DNA of 63,019 nt, the filler included, from Circinaria calcarea (Eukaryota), in the NCBI GenBank assembly GCA_051942165.1. It is 11 parts of 11 records of this genome, joined end to end, with 100 filler letters (N's around TTAATTAATTAA, not from the genome) between each part and the next. Parts side by side here need not be neighbours in the genome. Positions count along the whole stretch, not along the records: positions 11,503 to 17,153 come from JAVECS010001836.1; 10 more parts are not named here. One strand, given 5' to 3'. Position numbers and translations under genes: made by a program. Positions 2,768 through 17,824 of this stretch are shown here, piece after piece; the first letter of the stretch is position 1; the number at the start of each line of letters is the position of its first letter. The notes under the pieces are model-generated. The model ran no database searches. It was not told where the DNA came from and saw nothing but the letters and a program-made list of their open reading frames with translations.

Positions 2768-4187
2768 TCATTCCGGAACCGTAACAATCACACTCTCATA
2801 TAGCCCAGGGGTGTATACATACGTCTTAATGATTTTGAGACCTATAGACTTCAACAAAGCTTGCCACTGTATCTGTGTACGCTCCATAGAAGCGAGGGCA
2901 GACATCATTGTGAGATCCACTTGCGTCGCTTGCCAATGTGCGTTCGTATCCGGAAGAACCATATCGTCGATAAGGATCAGCGAGTCTTTGCCCATTGCTC
3001 CTATGGTGTTCTGGAGGATTAAACGGCATTTGTCGTCTGGGAAGTCATGTAGGATTCCGCGCATATAATAGAACTTGGCTTCTGTAAGCCGTTTAGCTTT
3101 CACTTTCAAAAGCTCAGGCAGGTACCGATTGGAAGATACCTTGAACTGGTTGTGGCTGAAAAAAATCGTGAACCATATTCTCGACACCTGGTGTAGACAG
3201 CGCGTTGTCGATACTGTAAGAAAGATCCTGTAGAATTACACGTCCTGGAAGATTGGGATATTTAGCTTTGAATTCGGCACACTGATGGCCAATGCCTCCC
3301 CCAATGTCGACGTAGACAGGAGCTTCCGATTTCCAAGCTTTAGTGTCTTGTTCAACTGGATATACAGATAGCCATGTAGGCATTCCTTTGCGTCGAGCAG
3401 CCATGTGTTGATTGAGATGAGTGAAGGCTTCTGGATGTTGTGGAAGCCAGAGAAAAGTTGGGAGCTCCGTTTTCCAAGCGTCCTGAAAAACTGTTTTAGT
3501 ACTGTCTGTAATATTCTGATATCTGTTTCTTGCTAGAAAGCTAGGTAGCTCCTGGAACTGTGGTCCAACGGTGTCGAAACTATGAAACTTCAGGCATCAG
3601 TTATCTATATAAAAAGAAGCAGCTTGCAACTGCGTATGAAGAGTAAATGGATAATACTTACTAATGACGAATGCCAGCTTGATTTCCAGGCAAGGCCAAC
3701 GCCTTAGTGATATTGGTAGCAGCATATGTGTCTTTTCCAGCCTCCTTAATCATTCCCACAGAGGCAAGGTATCTCAGCAAGCGGCCTGTTTTCCAGAGTT
3801 AGTATTGATTGACGATAAGAAAATGATAGGTACACGCTACTCAATAGAAGAGATTCTGCACCCGTCACTTGTGTGAGCTGCTCAAGGCTCAGTGGGGTTT
3901 CGCTCGCAGCGAGAAGGTCAAATATCTTTAGGTCAACGCCAACTCGGACACCTGAAACTCGAAGATGCTGAAAATTCACATATTAAACCCAGGTCCTTAT
4001 AATTTTCGCTCCATCTAGAGCTTTGAAGGTACAGTAGTAAGCTTACGAGGAACATGATCCTTCCCATCGTGTCATCTGGCGACTCAATAGAGTAAGCAAG
4101 ATCGCGAAGTGCTGTGATGATTTTTTTACGAGTAGCCTCATCGGCTGTGCTGGAGAGATCCTCGACTGTGTCAATAACTGCCTGCAT
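2768..4187 (-). CDS. SAM-dependent O-methyltransferase (Methyltransf_2, OmtB/AflO-like secondary-metabolite type), multi-exon
   Basis: Spliced ORFs give an N-terminal dimerisation region (RVGVDLKIFDLL), SAM motif VDIGGGIG, ILQDL, HDFFQPQPV and catalytic YYMRGILHDFPDDKC; ATG at 4187. Confidence 0.9.
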
Positions 4188-4286
4188 TCTACCAAAGGGT
4201 AATCCGAGAAGGAATAACAACAGATAAGAAGCAAGGAGAAACAAAAAATAAGCTGGGGCATTAAACTAAATACTGTAAGAGGCTTG

Positions 4287-4293
4287 TTATATA
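4287..4293 (-). promoter_or_regulatory. Candidate TATA box of the O-methyltransferase
   Basis: TATATAA on the minus strand about 100 bp upstream of ATG 4187. Confidence 0.4.
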
Positions 4294-4735
4294 CGGGAGC
4301 CCGGCATCCACCTCTATGGGAGCGCGTACTACCTATTGCGCCGAAAGGCAACCAGGCGGGGAATATCATCAGAATTGGGTTCAAATCCCATTAGCGCTTG
4401 ACTTTTGGCTGGCCTGATGGTTTTCCCGTCCTGTTTTTTATGACTTCGATTCGAGCCACCGTACACACAGGCTAAATGAACATCCTGTTTAAGGCTTTCT
4501 CCGGCTTCTAGCACAATCACAGGAATGCCCATCTTTCTAGTGGGAGAAATGCGAATAGCACACAAGCACCAGAGAGATCAAAGTTGTTGTGAGACCCCAT
4601 CACTAAGCTATAGATTCGTCCCAGAAGCTCAAAGCTCCCGAATAGCTATTCTCCAGCTAGGCTATCGATCTATATATACGAGTACTGCCATGCCAGAAAA
4701 CATCCAGGTAGCAGAAAGCATACACTATTAGGGCA

Positions 4736-5651
4736 TTAAAGCCCATTCTCCTTCTTAAACCGATCCCACGCCTCATTCAGCGTGCTAAAAACCGCACCGC
4801 TAATCATCGTTTGCTCCGTCGTAGCGGTCGTAGGCAACTATATATCTCCCAGTTAGCTTTGATACTCCTCACCACGGCCTAGCATATTCCACAAAGCAAC
4901 ACGAGAAACATACCTTATCGGGGTGAACTTTTGAAATCCCCTTCATATAAGCCACCTTGACCTTCCCCGGCACAATCAACTCGCCCATCCCTACCTTCTT
5001 CCACCCAGCTCCTTCCCATAGAACAGTATCTAAGCTCCCAAGTAACGCTCTTAGGTTCCCCTCCTTTCCTTTCCGCCATTTGGTGAGTCTCTCATCAACA
5101 CAGTCTGCAAGCGCGAATTTTTCATCATCCACCCGCTCAGCTTGGGCATTCGCAGCTCTCAGTCGATTCACTGCTTCGGTGGATGAGATTATGGTGGCAC
5201 CTTGCTTTCCGGAGAGATCCTGGATAACGGAGCTCTTTGGCTTCGGAGGTCTCCGTGTCGCAGGCTGAGGTTTGTGTGCAGCAAAATCACCTTGCAAGCT
5301 ACCGCTACCAGCAGCAGCCTTCTTGCACCTATTCCTTCCTTGAATGCTAGTGTTGCCTCCGACACCTGCTTCCGCACATTCCTTCCATACCTTTTCTGCA
5401 TCCTCCCATCGCTCAAGCTGCTCAAGTGCTTCAGCTTTACGAGTCATGGCTTTGCCCCAGAAAGCTGCCATCTCCTTACTTCCCTCTTCAGGGCCTAGTT
5501 CAATAGACTCACTCTCGCCTTTGGAAGGACCGATAACATTAAGAGCAGCGTCAGCGTCAGAAATGCATGCTTTGGGGTCGCCAGTCTTAAGATGAGTGAG
5601 GGCTCGGTTTGTAAGCAATACAGCCGTAAGAGGATGTGCTACGGGCAAAGA
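4736..5651 (-). CDS. SWA2: Auxilin-like clathrin-uncoating factor (TPR + C-terminal J-domain), 5'-truncated by contig end
   Basis: TPR (LLTNRALTHLKTG..KAMTRKAEALEQLE) and auxilin J-domain NLRALLGSLDTVLW..AYMKGISKVHPDK; intron 4838-4913; last exon LPTTATTEQTMISGAVFSTLNEAWDRFKKENGL*. Confidence 0.88.
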
Positions 5652-5751
5652 NNNNNNNNNNNNNNNNNNNNNNNNNNNNNNNNNNNNNNNNNNNNTTAAT
5701 TAATTAANNNNNNNNNNNNNNNNNNNNNNNNNNNNNNNNNNNNNNNNNNNN
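5652..5751. other. Artificial contig linker; identical linkers at 11403-11502, 17154-17253, 22902-23001, 28648-28747, 34389-34488, 40129-40228, 45859-45958, 51587-51686, 57304-57403
   Basis: N44-TTAATTAATTAA-N44 (stops in all six frames), always 100 bp; contig lengths 5651, 5651, 5651, 5648, 5646, 5641, 5640, 5630, 5628, 5617, 5616. Confidence 0.99.
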
Positions 5752-6073: not shown

Positions 6074-6160
6074 CCCCGATTAAAAAAAATATCGGAAATT
6101 TACAAATTTATACCCCGCAGGCCCAGTTCAGTAAAGAACTCATTACTGCTAGAAGGGTAC

Positions 6161-6494
6161 TGTAATGGCGCACCCCGCGGGGCTGTGCCAAGAGGTCTGA
6201 GCGATACGCGGGTTAGGCGTATCATTGGTACTGGACGTACTGGACGTGCTCGACGTCCACGACGTCCACCCCTTTCGGGAAGGTTCGTGTAACCTCAGAA
6301 AGACCTATATAGTCTCAGTCCTTTCCGTAGCATTTGACCTGTGTGGTCAAGACCTTACAAGTGTAGCAATATACTTCTATTGTCACTTATTACTTGCCAA
6401 GTGATTGGTATAGAACCTTAGTGCATATTACAGAGTCCCCGCCTTATACCAGTGACTAGCATTGCCTTTGCCTAAGAAGCTTAGGGACGTAACA
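6161..6494 (+). mobile_element. Solo LTR, family A (334 bp) with 5-bp target-site duplication
   Basis: TGTAAT...GTAACA termini; GGTAC directly repeated at 6156-6160 and 6495-6499; second copy at 45154-45502; internal CTATATAG TATA-like motif. Confidence 0.92.
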
Positions 6495-6545
6495 GGTACA
6501 GGCTTAAAGCAGCCTGGCTAAGTTCACTGTCGCAGTTTTCAGTGG

Positions 6546-6719
6546 GTCACCGTCGTAATACCACTGTCGCAATGCTACTATCGCAATGTTACTGTCGTAA
6601 TACCACTGTCGCAATGTTACTATGCCATTGGGGCCAGTAAGCTCTGCGGTAATGGGTTTTTGCAGTAATGACCTCTGCAGCGACAGTGACCTCTGCAGCG
6701 ACAATGACTTCTGCGATAG
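6546..6719. repeat. Minisatellites: six 14-bp units (6546-6629) and about 2.5 18-bp units (6669-6719)
   Basis: ACCACTGTCGCAAT-like units with a 42-bp higher-order period; TGACCTCTGCAGCGACAR x2 plus a partial unit. Confidence 0.85.
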
Positions 6720-6904
6720 TAATCGTTTCGATAGTAACAGAGACCTTCCTTCCACTAATAAAGGTTAACCACTGAAACAGGGCGACGGGGTACAAATTTG
6801 CAAGATAGGGTATAAATTTATAAATTTCCGAAAAAATATACAACTTATACCCCATTATACAAATTTATACCCCATCGGCCAAAATTAAAAATTCATCGTA
6901 AATC

Positions 6905-7124
6905 TGTAAGGGCTCTACCCGAGAACCCCTACGAACCCTACGGGGGAATTATACACCGAGGTCACGAGGTGTTGGCTTAGCGAGAAAGGTTTTCCTCGCG
7001 AAGCGTTATATAAGAACTTTTTAGGAATAATTTATACGCTGATGCGAATTAATTGAGCTCATTATCACACAATTCACCGACCCTTATCATAAAATCATTA
7101 TACTAGTCATAAAGGATCCTTACA
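6905..7124 (+). mobile_element. Solo-LTR-like repeat, family B (220 bp), copy 1
   Basis: TGTAAGG...CCTTACA inverted termini; colinear with 15845-16055; no TSD (AAATC vs GCATA). Confidence 0.8.
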
Positions 7125-7600
7125 GCATAGTAGTTACACACACAGCAACCCATACTCGTAGTTGCGCCACTTACTCTTTCACTTATTAATCGATGCCTAT
7201 TAGTGACGCCGTAGCTTGACACGAATACTAGCTATTATATATTTTTATTTTTGGGGGGTCACGTATTTAGTTCATAGGATCCTCTTATGGTAGATCCGAT
7301 CCAGTGGCTTTAAATGCGATTAGAGATGTAATTGCTGAGCTTTGAAGGGAAATAATAACTACTGATGTAAATTTAAAGCAAAGGCTTGAAATGTTTTACA
7401 GAGATGGATTATTGAGCAAATCTGATAAAGGTAGAATAAGGAGGTAGTTGTCTCACAAGAGTTTATATCTCGAATGAGTGAGCAACATCCCCCCCCCCAC
7501 CCTTTTAATTGCCAGGCACTGTGGTTTGAATCGTGAGTCTGCTGATTGTTCCTTCACCATCCCTTCTAGCCCTCATCCGCTTCGCCAAACCAAAATCCGA

Positions 7601-8070
7601 TCAACTCTGCTCAATCACTCCCCATCCCACCTGCTCCTTTCCATTGTAGATGGCAAACTGTATAAGGCCAAACCCATTCGATTCCATCTTCATGTACATT
7701 TTATTAATTGCCGCCAGAAGCTCACCCCAAGTCGTCTTCTGTCCTCGCATGTTCCACGTCGAGAGACTCAGGCCATGCTGGCCCCGCCATGAGAAGCCGT
7801 CTGATGTAATTTCTCCGTCACCGAGGTGGATAATGATGTCCTGTACAACGCCGTAAACCTCATGGAAGAGAGCCGCTAGGAGTGGTTTTGCGATGCCGCG
7901 TACTAGGCGGTAACGCACGTAGGCGCCAGGGTAGGGAATGCACCATGGTCCGCTGTCGGCGTCCACACGGGTGTGGAGTGTGCGGGGTCCGGGAATCGTG
8001 GGTGGGTGGTTAGCGGTTCTTGGGCCCCGGAACCCTGGACTCCGATGTGGGTTGGGGGCGGAGGAGCTGG
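7601..8070 (-). CDS. Hypothetical small protein; 3' exon, 5' end unresolved
   Basis: Frame is open from a CTGAC..CAG acceptor near 8068 to stop 7601; C-terminal TTWGELLAAINKMY..FAIYNGKEQVGWGVI resembles an uncharacterised family I recall from lichen-forming fungi. Confidence 0.55.
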
Positions 8071-11502: not shown

Positions 11503-12468
11503 CGAATCTGGTGGTATGTGTTTGGAGGGCAATTCGTCCATATATCGTACATCAAAGCGGCCGACACAAGCGACGCGGACGACAACGGATGGCGGAATGC
11601 GTGTTGCGTCGCACGGACTGCGGAAAGGAAAGCATATAAAAAAGCTGCCAAAGCGTACAGACAGTCGCAGCGAGACAACAAGGAGGATCAAACGATCATC
11701 GCCAGCGGTACTAGTAGCCTTATCGAAGCCGAGATCCACAGAGAGAATACTTTCAGATTTCGACATAAGCGATGTGCCAGGCTAATCGACTTGGATCCGG
11801 ATTACGAGAGTGATTTCAAGATCGGATGTCGGCCTGAACATCGCTTGCAGCTTGCGCTGCTACGGACTTCTCGTCAGGTGTACTGTGAAGCCAACCATAT
11901 CCTTTGGTCGACCAATACCTTCTCCTTCAACCATGCGAATACTGCCAAGATGTGGCTTAGCAATCGGAATGCTACGCAGAAACGCTCACTGAAAAGTTTG
12001 CACTTCACGCTTGGGTGGAACTCCGATGGAGAGTTCCCATGGAAAGGTGTGTTCCCCATGAAGATTGTCAAAACCCTTGTCGCGCTACGCCTTCTCCGCC
12101 TCTGCATTGAACAGTACGGGCCGTTGGAAGAAGTTGAGGATGTAATCTGCCGACCTGGAACAGGATGGAAATTGTGGACCGAAGGCATCCTGCGTTTTCA
12201 AGTTCTCCCTCTTGAGAAGGTTGCTATCCTCTTCGGTGATTCTAGTTCTAACGAACATGGTCTCCTCAACATCGCGAAGAGAGTAGAGTGCGCCGAGATC
12301 CTCGAGAAACGCTTGCTTCACTCGAATAGTTTAGAAGATTACCAGGAGAAACGGGCGGATGAGACTGAAGAGGCAGAAAAGAAGCGGTTGTTACTGAATG
12401 GGGAAGATCCGGCAGAGGACGATCCCTTGGATGGATTAAAAGACAAACTCTCGGACGATGAGAAGTAA
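11503..12468 (+). CDS. Conserved fungal hypothetical protein (DUF7730-like), 5'-truncated
   Basis: Frame open from contig start (RIWWYVFGGQFVHI); family motif LALLRTSRQVYCEANHILWSTNTFSF followed by LKSLHF and LRLLRL repeats. Confidence 0.75.
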   Translation, partial: RIWWYVFGGQFVHISYIKAADTSDADDNGWRNACCVARTAERKAYKKAAKAYRQSQRDNKEDQTIIASGTSSLIEAEIHRENTFRFRHKRCARLIDLDPDYESDFKIGCRPEHRLQLALLRTSRQVYCEANHILWSTNTFSFNHANTAKMWLSNRNATQKRSLKSLHFTLGWNSDGEFPWKGVFPMKIVKTLVALRLLRLCIEQYGPLEEVEDVICRPGTGWKLWTEGILRFQVLPLEKVAILFGDSSSNEHGLLNIAKRVECAEILEKRLLHSNSLEDYQEKRADETEEAEKKRLLLNGEDPAEDDPLDGLKDKLSDDEK

Positions 12469-13472
12469 AGATATGGATGTGATGATGAGTGGAGACATCG
12501 GTTTCATGCGTAATTGATGAAAAGTTAACGATGAACGGGGTAAGGATCCTCGACATTGCGATGTCCAAACATAGAAATACATACCCATGCATGATGCCAT
12601 AACGTCAATTGGTCACCCGGGCGGGAATCACCTTTCCACTTACTCTTTGCTAGAAACAAGCTTCAATAGCGATTCCTTGATCAACATAGAAAGTGATTAT
12701 ACTCCAGACGTGTGGTTGATGAGCGCAATGCGCGGCGCCTCCTTCGACGAATAATAGGTCAGCGGAAATGCCTTCTCTTTGAACGTGGCAACACTATACT
12801 GGATTGAAATGACAAATTCCGATCGCATGGAAGAGTGCATATCTACACCTTGTATAACAATTCTCGCCGTTTCCTAGTAAGATTCAAACGTAAAAGCTGG
12901 TGTAATGGGGAAGGTGCGCGAGCCTCATGTTAATGCCCCCGAGTTTAGGACGCCAGGCCTTAGCGCTAGTTCTAGCACGGGCCATCCAGCAAGAGGCTAG
13001 AGATTTGGATGTTTTAAACTGCCCAACATCACGACCATCTATCAAGATAATGAATGGTAGCTGCTAAATTCACAATCAGGATACACAAGTGAGGAGATAT
13101 TTACTGATTGCTCGAAATGCTCCTTTGCTGTGAAAAGTGGGCCTAGACAATCTGATCGTCGCTGCTCTTCGTTCCCCCCTAGGGCTTAGATTGCGTTGCA
13201 CCCCCCATCACTGTCGTTGCGGTGGCATATTTTCGCAGTGGTATTAGTAACTTTGTTCTGAATCTTCTTTGACTACGAATCGCGCTACGATTACGTTTCG
13301 AAGTTGCGGAATCTCACTCCCCGATTGCCATTCCCGGCGTCCCACTCTTCTTTGGTCATTGCGGTTCTTTCTTATTGCTAGAAATCAAGCATGTTTCCAA
13401 TGGAGTCATAATTCGATTGTCTCGTCGGCTTTGTAATACGCGTTACTGTTCGCAGGTCTCGACGTTTGCGGG

Positions 13473-13480
13473 TATATAAA
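13473..13480 (+). promoter_or_regulatory. Candidate TATA box of the USP-like ORF
   Basis: TATATAAA about 210 bp upstream of ATG 13689. Confidence 0.45.
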
Positions 13481-13688
13481 CCCGGATGCGGCGAGATCTC
13501 CCATTGTTGGTGATGCTTTGTCTATCTATACCTCATGAAAGGTTTCCTCATTCTCACCGAATATTTATCGTTATTACCATTGGTAGCGCGCACTATCAGA
13601 ACTTTATCTGTTCCTGCAATCATTTAACACTATAAATCTGCTTCGGAAACAATCTCGTAATCAATCTCTCCTTCCCGTTCCTTTCGTC

Positions 13689-15443
13689 ATGTCCAAGCTA
13701 CTGACCCCTAACGCAGTATGGCGTGGGCTGACACACAAGCAGTTGGCTGGCCAGACACAGGTAGCCACCTTAAAAGAGATTGTTGAAAGGGGAGGAGATC
13801 CAGATGGTGAAAGACCTAATACTAACGCAGCCAAGCAAACTTGGATGTTGGCTGCCATGCGAGTCATTGACAGTCAGGTACCTCGGCCCGATGACGAACA
13901 AGCATTAACGATCTGGAAAGGAGACACAAGCTCTCTCAAACAGCCGACGAAACAGACGTCGCGAGCTCAAGCACCCCGACCTCCAGCACCTCCCACCCAA
14001 GGATCAAGGTCCCGTCAACCTGCCCATGCTCAGCCTCTCGGTCCTAATCCGCCGCTTCCTCCTCCTTTCGGGCAGCGGATTCCGGACGCTGCAATTCGTA
14101 ATTCTCTAATTCTGCGCAACAACATAGTTGCCATGGAGAATCTTACACTGGGGTCGGCATACGATGACCGCACTGACCCCGACATCGCGAGTCTTCGAAT
14201 TTCGTTTTATAGCAGTTTGAAGGGTCCAAGACTGTTTGACCCGGCAAAGACTCCGTGTGGTCGAGTACTTACGCAGAGTTACAGCCTCAACCGCACTGGC
14301 AAGTCTTATCCACTTCGGGGTAGGGGCGCAGTATGGGATAGCAATTCCTGTGCTTTTGACTGCGTCTTGGCTGCATCCCGACTGTTGGGAGTTGGCTCGG
14401 CCGCTGTAGATTACGAAAATCAAAGTCGTCAAGAGTGGATCGACACATTGCAACCCCAGCAGCAAAGTTTCATGGCCGCGGTCGACTATGAATGGGACTT
14501 GGCCACTTACACCACAAGCATCAGAAGGCGGCATGACTTTCTCAAGATACAGCTGGCGCCTTACAATGCAGCAACAAAGGAAAATCATACAATTGGAAAG
14601 TTCCTGTCTGCGGTTATTTTATGGAAAATCTGTACGTCAATGACTACTCAGTTCACAGTCAGTACTAGGAACAAACGCGGTTGCACAGAGTGCAATCTTC
14701 AGATGCCAGATCCCCTGCCAGCCGTTAAGACAACCAGCAATGGTATAGACATTAGAGCAACCATGGAGAATGCCGAGAATCAGGCATCTATGCGAGAGCT
14801 ACTTCAAAGGCACTTTGCTGCCGTACCTGCTAGAAAGGTCGACCACAACTCAAGCTGCCAGGACAATGCAATAGTGAAATACCTAGAGGTGGAAGGAGAC
14901 CTCCCGTCTCACCTAGTAATCTACACGAACCCAAACTATAAAAATGTGAAAGGAGCGACGTCCGATGACATAACCTTTCAGTACTATTCTGACTGTACGG
15001 ATGAGCAACCAGGCGTCACTCAAGTAAAAGAGGGGCTTCGAAGAGTAACGTATCGCTGGGTAGGCGGAATATACCTACAAGACGAGCAGAACCATTACCG
15101 CCTATACTGGACAGACGATAGCCCCAACCCCAGAGGGAACATCAAAATATATGACGGACAACGCGCTATGGGGGCAATTATCGGCGGCGTCCCTCCCGAC
15201 CACCCGGTCGATAAAATTGTCGATTACTGGGCAGACGGTGCGGCCATTCTTTTCTACGAGCGAGTGGAACCCCGGCGAACCAAACGAAAGGCGGACGGCG
15301 ATGGTGGGCCGGTGCCACCCCGAACCCCTTTGAACAAGAGTGATCATCCAGTCAAGAAGCCAAAATTTTCAGGCGTTGGGCCGACACCCCCCGAAACCCC
15401 TCAGAATACGGGGAGTAACATTGACATCGTCGATCTAACCTAA
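13689..15443 (+). CDS. Intronless 584-aa protein with a USP/papain-like cysteine protease domain, NLS-like clusters and a C-terminal SIM-like motif
   Basis: Cys box WDSNSCAFDCVL (C221), CTEC, LPSHLVI, His box YRWVGGIY..NHYRLYW (H469), IYDG (D489), terminal ILFYER; basic clusters RRTKRK and KKPKF; ends IDIVDLT*. Confidence 0.7.
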   Translation: MSKLLTPNAVWRGLTHKQLAGQTQVATLKEIVERGGDPDGERPNTNAAKQTWMLAAMRVIDSQVPRPDDEQALTIWKGDTSSLKQPTKQTSRAQAPRPPAPPTQGSRSRQPAHAQPLGPNPPLPPPFGQRIPDAAIRNSLILRNNIVAMENLTLGSAYDDRTDPDIASLRISFYSSLKGPRLFDPAKTPCGRVLTQSYSLNRTGKSYPLRGRGAVWDSNSCAFDCVLAASRLLGVGSAAVDYENQSRQEWIDTLQPQQQSFMAAVDYEWDLATYTTSIRRRHDFLKIQLAPYNAATKENHTIGKFLSAVILWKICTSMTTQFTVSTRNKRGCTECNLQMPDPLPAVKTTSNGIDIRATMENAENQASMRELLQRHFAAVPARKVDHNSSCQDNAIVKYLEVEGDLPSHLVIYTNPNYKNVKGATSDDITFQYYSDCTDEQPGVTQVKEGLRRVTYRWVGGIYLQDEQNHYRLYWTDDSPNPRGNIKIYDGQRAMGAIIGGVPPDHPVDKIVDYWADGAAILFYERVEPRRTKRKADGDGGPVPPRTPLNKSDHPVKKPKFSGVGPTPPETPQNTGSNIDIVDLT

Positions 15444-15844
15444 ACCTCTCCTTATATAGGCTACCTTTTCCGAGTTAGTCTGGTCATTGAAGATATAAAC
15501 TCATTATATTTAACTGAATTTAATATCTAAACCCTTAGAGATGTGACTGTTTATTTGATCATGTTCTGCTATTTTATGTTCTATTGTAGCTAGCTCGCTA
15601 TTATATACAAAAACGGACTAGACTAGACGAAAAAGACTTATTAGATTGATTTTATACAAACGACCGAATTCTCTCCCCCAAATGGCAAAAGCCGAGCGAG
15701 TCCCAGGATCAGAAAAAAGTGCTTTATTCGAAAGAAAAAGCGGAAACGAGTTTCAAACGCAGAAATCTCCACATACACATACACACAGCCATTGCCAATT
15801 TGGATTCTTACCGCATAGATGGGGCCGCTTGGCTTGTTCGATAC

Positions 15845-16055
15845 TGTAAGGGCTCTACCCGAGAAACCCGACGGGTGAACTATACACCGAGGTCACGAGG
15901 TGTAAGTTTAGCAAGAAAGGTTTTCTTCGCGAAGTGTTACACCAGAATTCTTTAGCAATAATTCATACGCTTACGCGAACCCATCGAGCTTATTATCACA
16001 CAGTTTACCGACCCTTATCGTAAGATCATTATACTATTCGTAAAGGATCCTTACA
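15845..16055 (+). mobile_element. Solo-LTR-like repeat, family B (211 bp), copy 2
   Basis: TGTAAGGGCTCTACCCGAGA...AAAGGATCCTTACA, colinear with 6905-7124; no TSD (GATAC vs TAGAT). Confidence 0.8.
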
Positions 16056-17824
16056 TAGATGAGATACGAGAATAAATACGGCAACCTGAAGCAATACTGC
16101 AGCCCGTCAGCAGCCGTGAGATGTTAGATTATTATGGAGCCCGACGTACTGTTGAGTTGATTGAGGGTAGATTTCTAAATAATGCGAAAGAAAACCTCCT
16201 AACGCGTTTTTATTTTTGACGGAACATGCAGCCCCGAGTCCATTTTTGCTTATTATTTTTTCGTTATTATATTCTCGAGGGGCCAGATTTCCTGTCCTTT
16301 TTTTTTTTGGTTCCTGACTGCCGCTCACTCTTTCCCCTTCTCCCCCTCTTCAATATACAGACCCTCTAAACCAGCAATACGTAATTTTTCCCCAAAAGGG
16401 AGACAACCTAATTGGGCCCCCCACCCCAGACGATCGATAGAGCCCCCGGATTTGATATCGATAGTATTACCAAGTCTCAGGCCAAAGGCCGTACACCGAA
16501 GCTGCTGCATGTCCGTCCATACCTCGGGGTTACTTGAGCACCTCGACCCGTTTTTTCTGTGCATCTCCCCCGGGTCACGGCAACTACCCCGGTAAGCCAC
16601 TGCGGGCGAGAAGAGAGCTGTATCTGGGACCAATTAGTCGAAGGGGGGGGGGGGAAAGGCCAGATCGCGGGAGCTTAAGGACTAGCCTCAATTCGCTTCC
16701 CTATTCTTGACCGGAAATGCGGTATGCGCCTGTTGTTCCGGGCCGCCACTCCTTGAAGGATAGGTTATCTACGAGAGAACGAAGGCAGCTGTTGAATGGA
16801 CCCTGCCCCTAATGTGGGTGAGTGGATTTATAGTAGATGGGATAGATGAATAAGGCCGGTTTCCTGGGAGGGAAGATGCAGCTAGAGGATAAAAGGTCGT
16901 ATTAATGTATATATATGTCTTTCTGAATTAGCGTGACGTCCATGCTTATTTACCCAGCCCGGCAATCTCCTGAACTGGAATACACACTTCAGCGGCCCGG
17001 GGCGAAGTACCGCGAGACGTTTGACTGATTGAAATGGTTCTCAGGATTGCAGGCCGTGGAGCCTCGTGCTTTAAATCTATTTGCCCCTGATCTGGATTCC
17101 TATCCCCTCTCCCCTTGAGCCATGACTGATGCGGTTTGATATCCGTAGACGTCNNNNNNNNNNNNNNNNNNNNNNNNNNNNNNNNNNNNNNNNNNNNTTA
17201 ATTAATTAANNNNNNNNNNNNNNNNNNNNNNNNNNNNNNNNNNNNNNNNNNNNTTCTCGAACCTGGGCATTGACCATAGGCGGCTCTCTTTAGGCGCCAT
17301 TCTAATATTCTGTAAGGGTAGTTGTAGGGTGATGGTTATCTGAATATACCGAAACAACCATTACCGGAACACGAACTCTATATATTCGGCATGGCGTGTT
17401 CACTATTACAGCATCAAAGAAATTGACTCCAAGCCCCTATTCTTCCTTTGAAACAACCACTATTCATTGTCGATTGTCTTAACAAAGCCCCTTCTTAGAT
17501 ATGGTTCGGACTGGCCTCGAAATTCGAAGTCATGGGCACGTCGTCGCATCCTGGAGGGACCAAGCTATGTTCTGTTATGCTATGAACATGGAGATCACCA
17601 TTTACTAATTGTAGGAGGACTTCCGCTAAATTTGGAATATGGTGGTTTCTAAGTAGCAATATAGTTTACGTTAAGAGAGTGCCAAATACCATAGATTAAC
17701 TTTGGCTCAGAATAGACCTTTGTAGATAGTTCTCACTTTGTTCCTTTGTTAGCCTTGTATTGTTGCGGGGTGGACCAGAATGTTGTCTCCTAGGAACGAA
17801 CAATGTCAATTCAATGCAGAGCGC

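Follow-up and report, generated by a model that had tools for sequence, protein, structure and literature searches.

We identified a gene in Circinaria calcarea (assembly GCA_051942165.1) that encodes a predicted nuclear cysteine isopeptidase with the USP fold. The protein belongs to an old, inherited family of fungal proteins that we place in the SUMO system tentatively, with slightly less than even confidence; its most likely function would be that of a deSUMOylase for chromatin-associated proteins. The window analysed is a stretch of 63,019 nucleotides made up of separate contigs of about 5.7 kb and N spacers, and genuine genomic context for the gene is confined to positions 11503-17153 (JAVECS010001836.1, here contig C1836). 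Feature coordinates are given in Table 1.

The reading frame is uninterrupted over all 584 codons, as expected from the first-pass annotation of this DNA, which had described an intronless gene, and each of the ordered motifs listed there was recovered at its assigned position. These motifs go beyond chance: the first alignment, of 13 proteins, shows no variation at C221, D224, C332, C335, H469 or D489. Comparison with a second intact copy (contig C871) indicates purifying selection, with a dN/dS of 0.39 overall and 0.25 over residues 151-530 (15 non-synonymous and 17 synonymous differences). The sequence TATATAAA at 13473-13480, some 210 bp before the start codon, is a plausible TATA box.

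Table 1. Features of contig C1836, in window coordinates
Feature	Position	Strand	Basis or remark
DUF7730 gene	11503..12468	+	Upstream, cut by the contig start; common to the contig C871 copy
Single-ORF gene, 584 aa	13689..15443	+	Translation free of stops; member of an unannotated USP-fold family
N-terminal four-helix domain, residues 1-76	13689..13916	+	Helix-extended-helix core (helices 25-35, 49-61); possible chromatin tether; weak support for a SAP/HeH type
USP-fold catalytic domain (thumb, Zn fingers, palm), about residues 194-530	14268..15278	+	Model, structure matches, profile comparison
WDSNSC	from 14334 (C221 codon 14349)	+	
Predicted catalytic Cys221	14349..14351	+	Helix start (model); box RGRGPxWxxNSCxxD
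CTEC	from 14682	+	
Finger zinc site C332, C335, H386, C390	14682..14858	+	Conservation
LPSHLVI	from 14901	+	
GGIY	from 15063	+	
Y462...H469-Y470	15072..15098	+	Tyr at blocking-loop His position, short loop, catalytic His, gatekeeper
NHYRLYW	from 15090 (H469 codon 15093)	+	
IYDG	from 15147 (D489 codon 15153)	+	
Predicted catalytic Asp489	15153..15155	+	D in 144/148; aligned with the xDD motif of canonical UBPs (hhalign)
ILFYER	from 15246	+	
Two basic NLS-like clusters, RRTKRK (15273) and KKPKF (15354)	15273..15368	+	Motif positions
C-terminal SIM-b-like motif IDIVDLT	15420..15440	+	Kept at the C-terminus of the closest clade
LTR-like repeat, 211 bp, TG...CA	about 15845..16055	+	402 bp after the stop; later insertion, outside the gene

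No Pfam family matched the 584-aa protein at E<=1, and neither the protein nor the family profile found anything significant in sequence and profile searches of the PDB. An AlphaFold2 model of residues 151-536, based on 73 sequences, has a pLDDT of 92.5 and a pTM of 0.91, and all Foldseek matches listed for it are USP-family domains (USPL1 at ranks 6, 7 and 10). VIA-align gave Z scores of 19.3 for USP2 (rmsd 4.4, 274 residues aligned) and USP11, 19.1 for USP30 and USP35, 17.8 for USP54 and 16.1 for USPL1 (rmsd 5.2, 246 of USPL1's 251 residues aligned); more than 20 structure entries score at least as high as USPL1. Profile alignment (hhalign) of the family to seven canonical UBP domains encoded elsewhere in the genome spans fingers and palm with a probability of 94.5 and an E-value of 7.5e-8. 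The structural comparison with peptidase families C19 and C98 suggested in the first-pass annotation thus returned a USP fold, and the USP/USPL1-like protease proposed there agrees with this fold and with a USPL1-like active-site region.

The predicted triad C221-H469-D489 maps onto the USP triad by structural alignment and hhalign, which bears out the earlier assignment of these residues. It is complete in 101 of 148 family cores (those of at least 270 residues among 159 proteins; 11 partial ones were dropped) and in 115 of 168 in a larger, partly redundant set that adds further proteins and loci. C221 falls on USP2 C276, USP30 C77, USP35 C450 and USPL1 C236 according to alignment start offsets, which assume that the first 11-15 residues are ungapped (reference numbers are from PDB titles and PMC8983731). 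H469 is placed by hhalign on the His of the canonical GHY motif. Secondary structure of the model, alignment offsets and hhalign together put the predicted catalytic Cys at the start of a helix and the His and Asp on adjacent palm strands, the arrangement of a USP-type triad. Three of the finger zinc ligands are nearly invariant (C332 in 146, C335 in 145 and C390 in 142 of 148); the second pair is CxxC in 119 and HxxC in 21 of 168 proteins, H386 being Cys in most members. A gatekeeper aromatic residue follows the catalytic His in 92 of the 115 members with an intact triad (Y470 in the C. calcarea protein), a feature described as marking Gly-Gly-ending substrates generally (PMC7391069).

The gene had initially been considered an orphan. 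A full scan of 50%-identity representatives instead found 207 homologous clusters at E<=0.001 (150 of them listed), 169 at 1e-10 and 61 at 1e-30, which share a region of approximately residues 194-530. Names were looked up for 30 clusters and are available for further matches; most matches are nameless, and all names found are 'hypothetical' or 'uncharacterised' proteins. The closest named homologues are from lichen-forming ascomycetes. Named members occur in Lecanoromycetes (e.g., Circinaria, Xanthoria, Schaereria, Brigantiaea), Eurotiomycetes (Aspergillus, Penicillium, Talaromyces, Paecilomyces, Thermoascus, Onygenales, Pyrenula) and Xylobotryomycetes (Cirrosporium), with lineages confirmed for three of the labels. 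Most matches being nameless, the true taxonomic range may be wider. A Pfam scan of 73 members gave four matches to UCH_1, all under the cut-off, and none to Peptidase_C98. Longer or fused forms (1454-4150 aa) were absent from 5117 candidates, which argues weakly against their existence. Four pattern matches in IMG/VR were not confirmed as homologues, and phage records contain no homologue. A word-matching literature search, largely outside subscription journals, returned no paper on this family; supplementary DUB inventories could list members. Excerpts of a classification of papain-like families (PMC10318531) and of a study of DUB evolution (PMC5381560) show no such fungal family.

Residues 1-76 are alignable across 39 selected homologues. 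The SAP/HeH helix suspected in the first reading receives weak support: there is a conserved helix-extended-helix domain of about 76 residues (model pLDDT 78.7), but the best structural match has a Z of 4.2, short of 5. Rho-N scores 3.5 and SAP entries 2.4-2.7 (CDNF 2.7, MANF 2.6), and death domains score like SAP/HeH. Foldseek returned no match for this domain at E<=0.001, and its HeH lead in the ESM Atlas has a score of 0.77.

The C-terminal flanks of the family were searched for SIM and NLS-like motifs. The basic clusters proposed as NLS-like are present, and NLS-like motifs are enriched family-wide, in the C-terminal flanks of 101 of 147 members against 33.7 +/- 4.3 in shuffled sequences. 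The proposed SIM is found at the very C-terminus, where the IDIVDLT-type motif is kept despite a diverged tail, but only in the closest clade (P0001-P0005). SIM-b is mildly enriched across the family (12 of 147 flanks against 2.5 +/- 1.5; none of 300 shuffles reaches 12), and SIM-a and SIM-r are not (10 against 7.6 and 8 against 5.9). Both enrichments favour the deSUMOylase reading. The absence of SIM-b from 135 of 147 members, the concentration of four of the 12 carriers in the clade of the C. calcarea protein and the weak HeH call all weaken the deSUMOylase reading.

Under that reading, the basic tail would import the protein into the nucleus, where it would be tethered to DNA or chromatin by the helix-extended-helix domain, with SUMO chains bound by the SIM-like motif at its C-terminus. 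Thumb, zinc fingers and palm, as modelled, would hold a modifier that presumably ends in Gly-Gly, with Y470 as gatekeeper, and C221-H469-D489, as placed by alignment, would cut the isopeptide bond.

USPL1 is described as lacking blocking loops and as carrying Tyr451 in place of the His of ubiquitin USPs, Met330 and Phe335 in place of their Gln and Glu, and Phe457 in place of Tyr; four residues separate Tyr451 from the catalytic His456 (PMC8983731). In the fungal family, the QxDxxE motif occurs in 0 of 148 cores, against nine such motifs in the canonical UBP loci of the same genome, and Y462, at the His position of canonical UBPs, is Tyr in 142 of 148. The first blocking loop, short relative to that of canonical UBPs, has no LKRF. 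Spacing from this Tyr to the catalytic His is Y-x4-H in 125 of 168 proteins (x6 in the C. calcarea protein); in canonical UBPs, 7-8 residues follow the His in all 13 His boxes recovered from 27 loci of the genome. With QxDxxE lost and His replaced by Tyr, the contacts to Arg72/Arg74 and the tail of ubiquitin described in PMC8983731 are missing. An S1 site without canonical ubiquitin contacts, as in USPL1, argues against general deubiquitination. A loss of ordinary ubiquitin binding in the family is thus well supported, and SUMO would be the likeliest replacement modifier. The SUMO gene of C. calcarea was located on contig C59 (1345-1746, - strand); it ends in EQIGG, and its intron is in frame and free of stops.

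Other features weaken the deSUMOylase reading. Structure comparison gives USPL1 no advantage over ubiquitin USPs, and the family profile never reaches USPL1: the search against the PDB at E<=10 gave no USPL1 chain and weak matches (E 0.5-4) to USP18, Ubp8 and USP9X. The residue after the catalytic His is Phe in 66 and Tyr in 46 of 148 cores, and Tyr470 of the C. calcarea protein is of the ubiquitin type. With the register taken from the helix start alone, family column 310, the putative Phe335 equivalent, is variable, and the SUMO contacts of USPL1 (Arg324, Phe335, His421, His493, Asn398) are not evident in the family, fungal SUMO itself differing from human SUMO2. The x6 loop counts in the same direction, as does the precedent of USP53/54, which have truncated blocking loops yet are reported to cleave K63 ubiquitin chains (PMC12037411). 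The top structural matches, Tyr470, the USP53/54 precedent and the weak UCH_1 matches would suit a deubiquitinase that has a weakened S1 site and a chain specificity like that of USP53/54, or a SUMO-targeted DUB recruited via its SIM to nuclear proteins co-modified by SUMO and ubiquitin; fungal enzymes of the latter kind have yet to be elucidated, according to part of a review (PMC11986368). We consider this alternative rather unlikely, since the missing QxDxxE and the Tyr-for-His exchange remove the Arg72/Arg74 and tail contacts mentioned above.

Active and apparently dead members coexist in the family. The triad is incomplete in 47 of the 148 cores, across several separate branches; losses are mostly Cys to Ser and are concentrated in Aspergillus, Onygenales and Talaromyces, a few isolated ones occurring on other branches. 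The triad is kept in most lichen members and in named Penicillium (e.g., Penicillium oxalicum PDE_08099), Paecilomyces and Thermoascus members. In two Cirrosporium paralogues (P0083 and P0097), Cys replaces the catalytic Asp (C-H-C). Triad-less members keep RGRGP, D224, W269, W312, QF, the zinc cysteines and YRWLGGIY, mostly at 80-100%, while conservation drops from 0.94 to 0.27 at W216 and from 0.84 to 0.50 at N219 once the triad is lost. This retention of the scaffold suggests a role for the fold beyond catalysis, and triad-less members with an intact scaffold are probably binding proteins. Essential non-catalytic functions are reported for USPL1 (PMC8983731), and these fit the existence of pseudoenzyme members. 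The same members could be taken to mean that the family as a whole is a non-catalytic USP-fold scaffold (like Pan2 or Sad1), or a protease for another modifier (Rub1/NEDD8) or for a protein unrelated to ubiquitin. That seems improbable to us, given the many members with an intact triad, including the divergent paralogue described below, and given that W216 and N219 decay alongside the triad, as expected of a genuine active site.

Besides the gene in the window, the C. calcarea genome contains the intact copy on contig C871, which is 93.9% identical across 4248 bp that take in the DUF7730 gene, a third, decayed copy on contig C1412 (about 4070-5220, - strand), which is broken by stops and frame breaks and lacks most of the palm region, and a very divergent paralogue on contig C746 (2267-3925, + strand; about 22% identity) with an intact triad. 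The ORFs near this paralogue (771-1751, 6097-8007 and from 8739) are orphans without Pfam matches, one of which we take to be GIY-YIG-like, and a 149-bp inverted repeat pair (4297-4438 and 5577-5722) adjoins it. Unlike the contig C1836 copy, the contig C746 copy could be mobile-element cargo. Downstream of the second copy (contig C871, 6871-9917) is a WD40 gene, presumably similar to DIM-9/Raf1; its 95.5%-identical twin on contig C2401 has different upstream DNA, indicating a rearranged haplotype or segmental duplication.

The LTR that had been noted some 400 bp from the gene corresponds to the LTR-like repeat of Table 1, which occurs 40 times or more in the genome. When the two intact copies are aligned, similarity stops precisely where this repeat starts, and contig C871 lacks it; thus, the LTR is a later insertion. 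A target-site duplication was not found, as the inserted sequence extends to the end of the contig. Within the window, two families of LTR-like repeats are each present on more than one contig (6904-7124 and 15844-16055; 6161-6494 and 45154-45502).

Neighbourhoods were compared in 18 metagenome loci, which reduce to nine independent ones. CDC45 lies within 10 kb in five of the nine, in a block that includes Ccdc124, GPI8 and an F-box/LRR-like gene (a label from reading the sequence, which has no Pfam match). The protease gene is head-to-head with CDC45, 794-946 bp apart in three loci and 3.8 kb apart in one. The 0.8-0.95 kb between the two start codons in three independent loci hints at a shared promoter. 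A sixth independent locus, on a short contig, has Ccdc124 upstream, and in three independent loci the gene lies between carboxypeptidase Y-RPS18 and a peroxidase. One Cirrosporium gene model fuses the protease to its F-box/LRR-like neighbour. The whole core is a single ORF in eight of the nine loci, so the family has long been intronless. In C. calcarea, CDC45 lies directly beside the F-box/LRR-like gene, and no remnant of the protease is left there; either the gene moved, or that copy was lost. In a tree of the family, named members group broadly by taxon.

On these short contigs, beyond which a large enclosing element might extend in C. calcarea, the gene lies neither within the ends of an element (LTR, Starship, Helitron or KDZ) nor beside transposase or captain genes, and the search for Starship, Helitron and KDZ neighbourhoods that had been suggested led to housekeeping genes. 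The empty CDC45 slot, the additional copies (one of them among orphan ORFs) and the intronless family are what recent capture from a transposon or virus, or retroposition, of an anti-silencing factor might leave, but this origin and role, proposed in the first-pass annotation, are highly improbable given the LTR-free contig C871 copy, the conserved housekeeping neighbourhoods of the independent loci, the taxon-like tree and the absence of IMG/VR or phage homologues. The family as a whole may have an ancient mobile origin.

Returning to deSUMOylation, we also put forward, as a distinctly tentative proposal, that this is an overlooked USP-fold deSUMOylase of Lecanoromycetes and Eurotiomycetes, a USPL1 counterpart by deep kinship or convergence. 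It would be HeH-tethered to chromatin and ancestrally head-to-head with CDC45, possibly acting in S phase, and in Aspergillus and Onygenales it would repeatedly have become a pseudoenzyme that binds SUMO. For fungi, one review lists SUMO proteases of the Ulp type and Wss1 (PMC11986368); SUMO removal, not recorded there for fungal USP-fold enzymes, may be the role of this family. If so, USPL1-like chemistry would be older than reported, or the USP fold would have switched to SUMO a second time, and Penicillium, Aspergillus and lichen fungi would gain an enzyme missing from their ubiquitin/SUMO inventory. The active and dead members side by side are a natural test case for non-catalytic USP functions.

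Among known systems, USPL1 (C98, PF15499) shares the USP fold, the finger zinc site, Cys-His-Asp, a Trp a few residues before the Cys, the Tyr-x4-His without a second blocking loop (family; x6 in the C. calcarea protein), a short first blocking loop, the lack of QxDxxE, long disordered flanks and a nuclear location (predicted for the C. calcarea protein). It differs in that there is no sequence or Pfam match, the Phe335-type SUMO contact appears not to be conserved in the family, Phe rather than the Tyr of the C. calcarea protein follows the catalytic His, and DUF4650 is present rather than the N-terminal HeH-like domain of this fungal family. According to one study, USPL1, a SUMO isopeptidase, arose in bilateria (PMC5381560), and sections of a plant and algal study record none in Chlamydomonas (PMC7522501).

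Canonical USP/UBP enzymes (C19, PF00443) give the top structural scores (Z about 19) and a finger and palm profile match, and share the aromatic gatekeeper and the ILFYER final strand. The family, however, has the box RGRGPxWxxNSCxxD rather than GLxNxGNTCYxN and lacks QxDxxE, the HxG-x-GHY loop and LKRF; a PF00443 scan of the C. calcarea genome gave 27 matches, the gene at 13689-15443 not being among them. USP53 and USP54 (K63-directed DUBs) are similar in their divergent USP domain and truncated blocking loops (Z 17.8 to USP54), without a sequence match. Pseudo-USPs (the Pan2 UCH_1 domain and Sad1/USP39) likewise keep the USP scaffold, and loss of the catalytic Cys or His is common in the fungal family; the C. 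calcarea protein, in contrast, has a full triad and no nuclease or spliceosomal partner domain. The nearest ESM Atlas look-alikes, by Atlas score alone (0.94, residues 170-530), are C14orf28 and unnamed basidiomycete clusters (283-335 aa), which score above UCH-labelled clusters and may make up a wider group of atypical USP-fold proteins. As it qualifies as a member of neither canonical C19 nor C98, we regard the family as a separate, unannotated USP-fold family. On the model and its residue patterns, the C. calcarea protein appears to work in the manner of a USP-fold Gly-Gly isopeptidase, with active-site loops that resemble those of USPL1.
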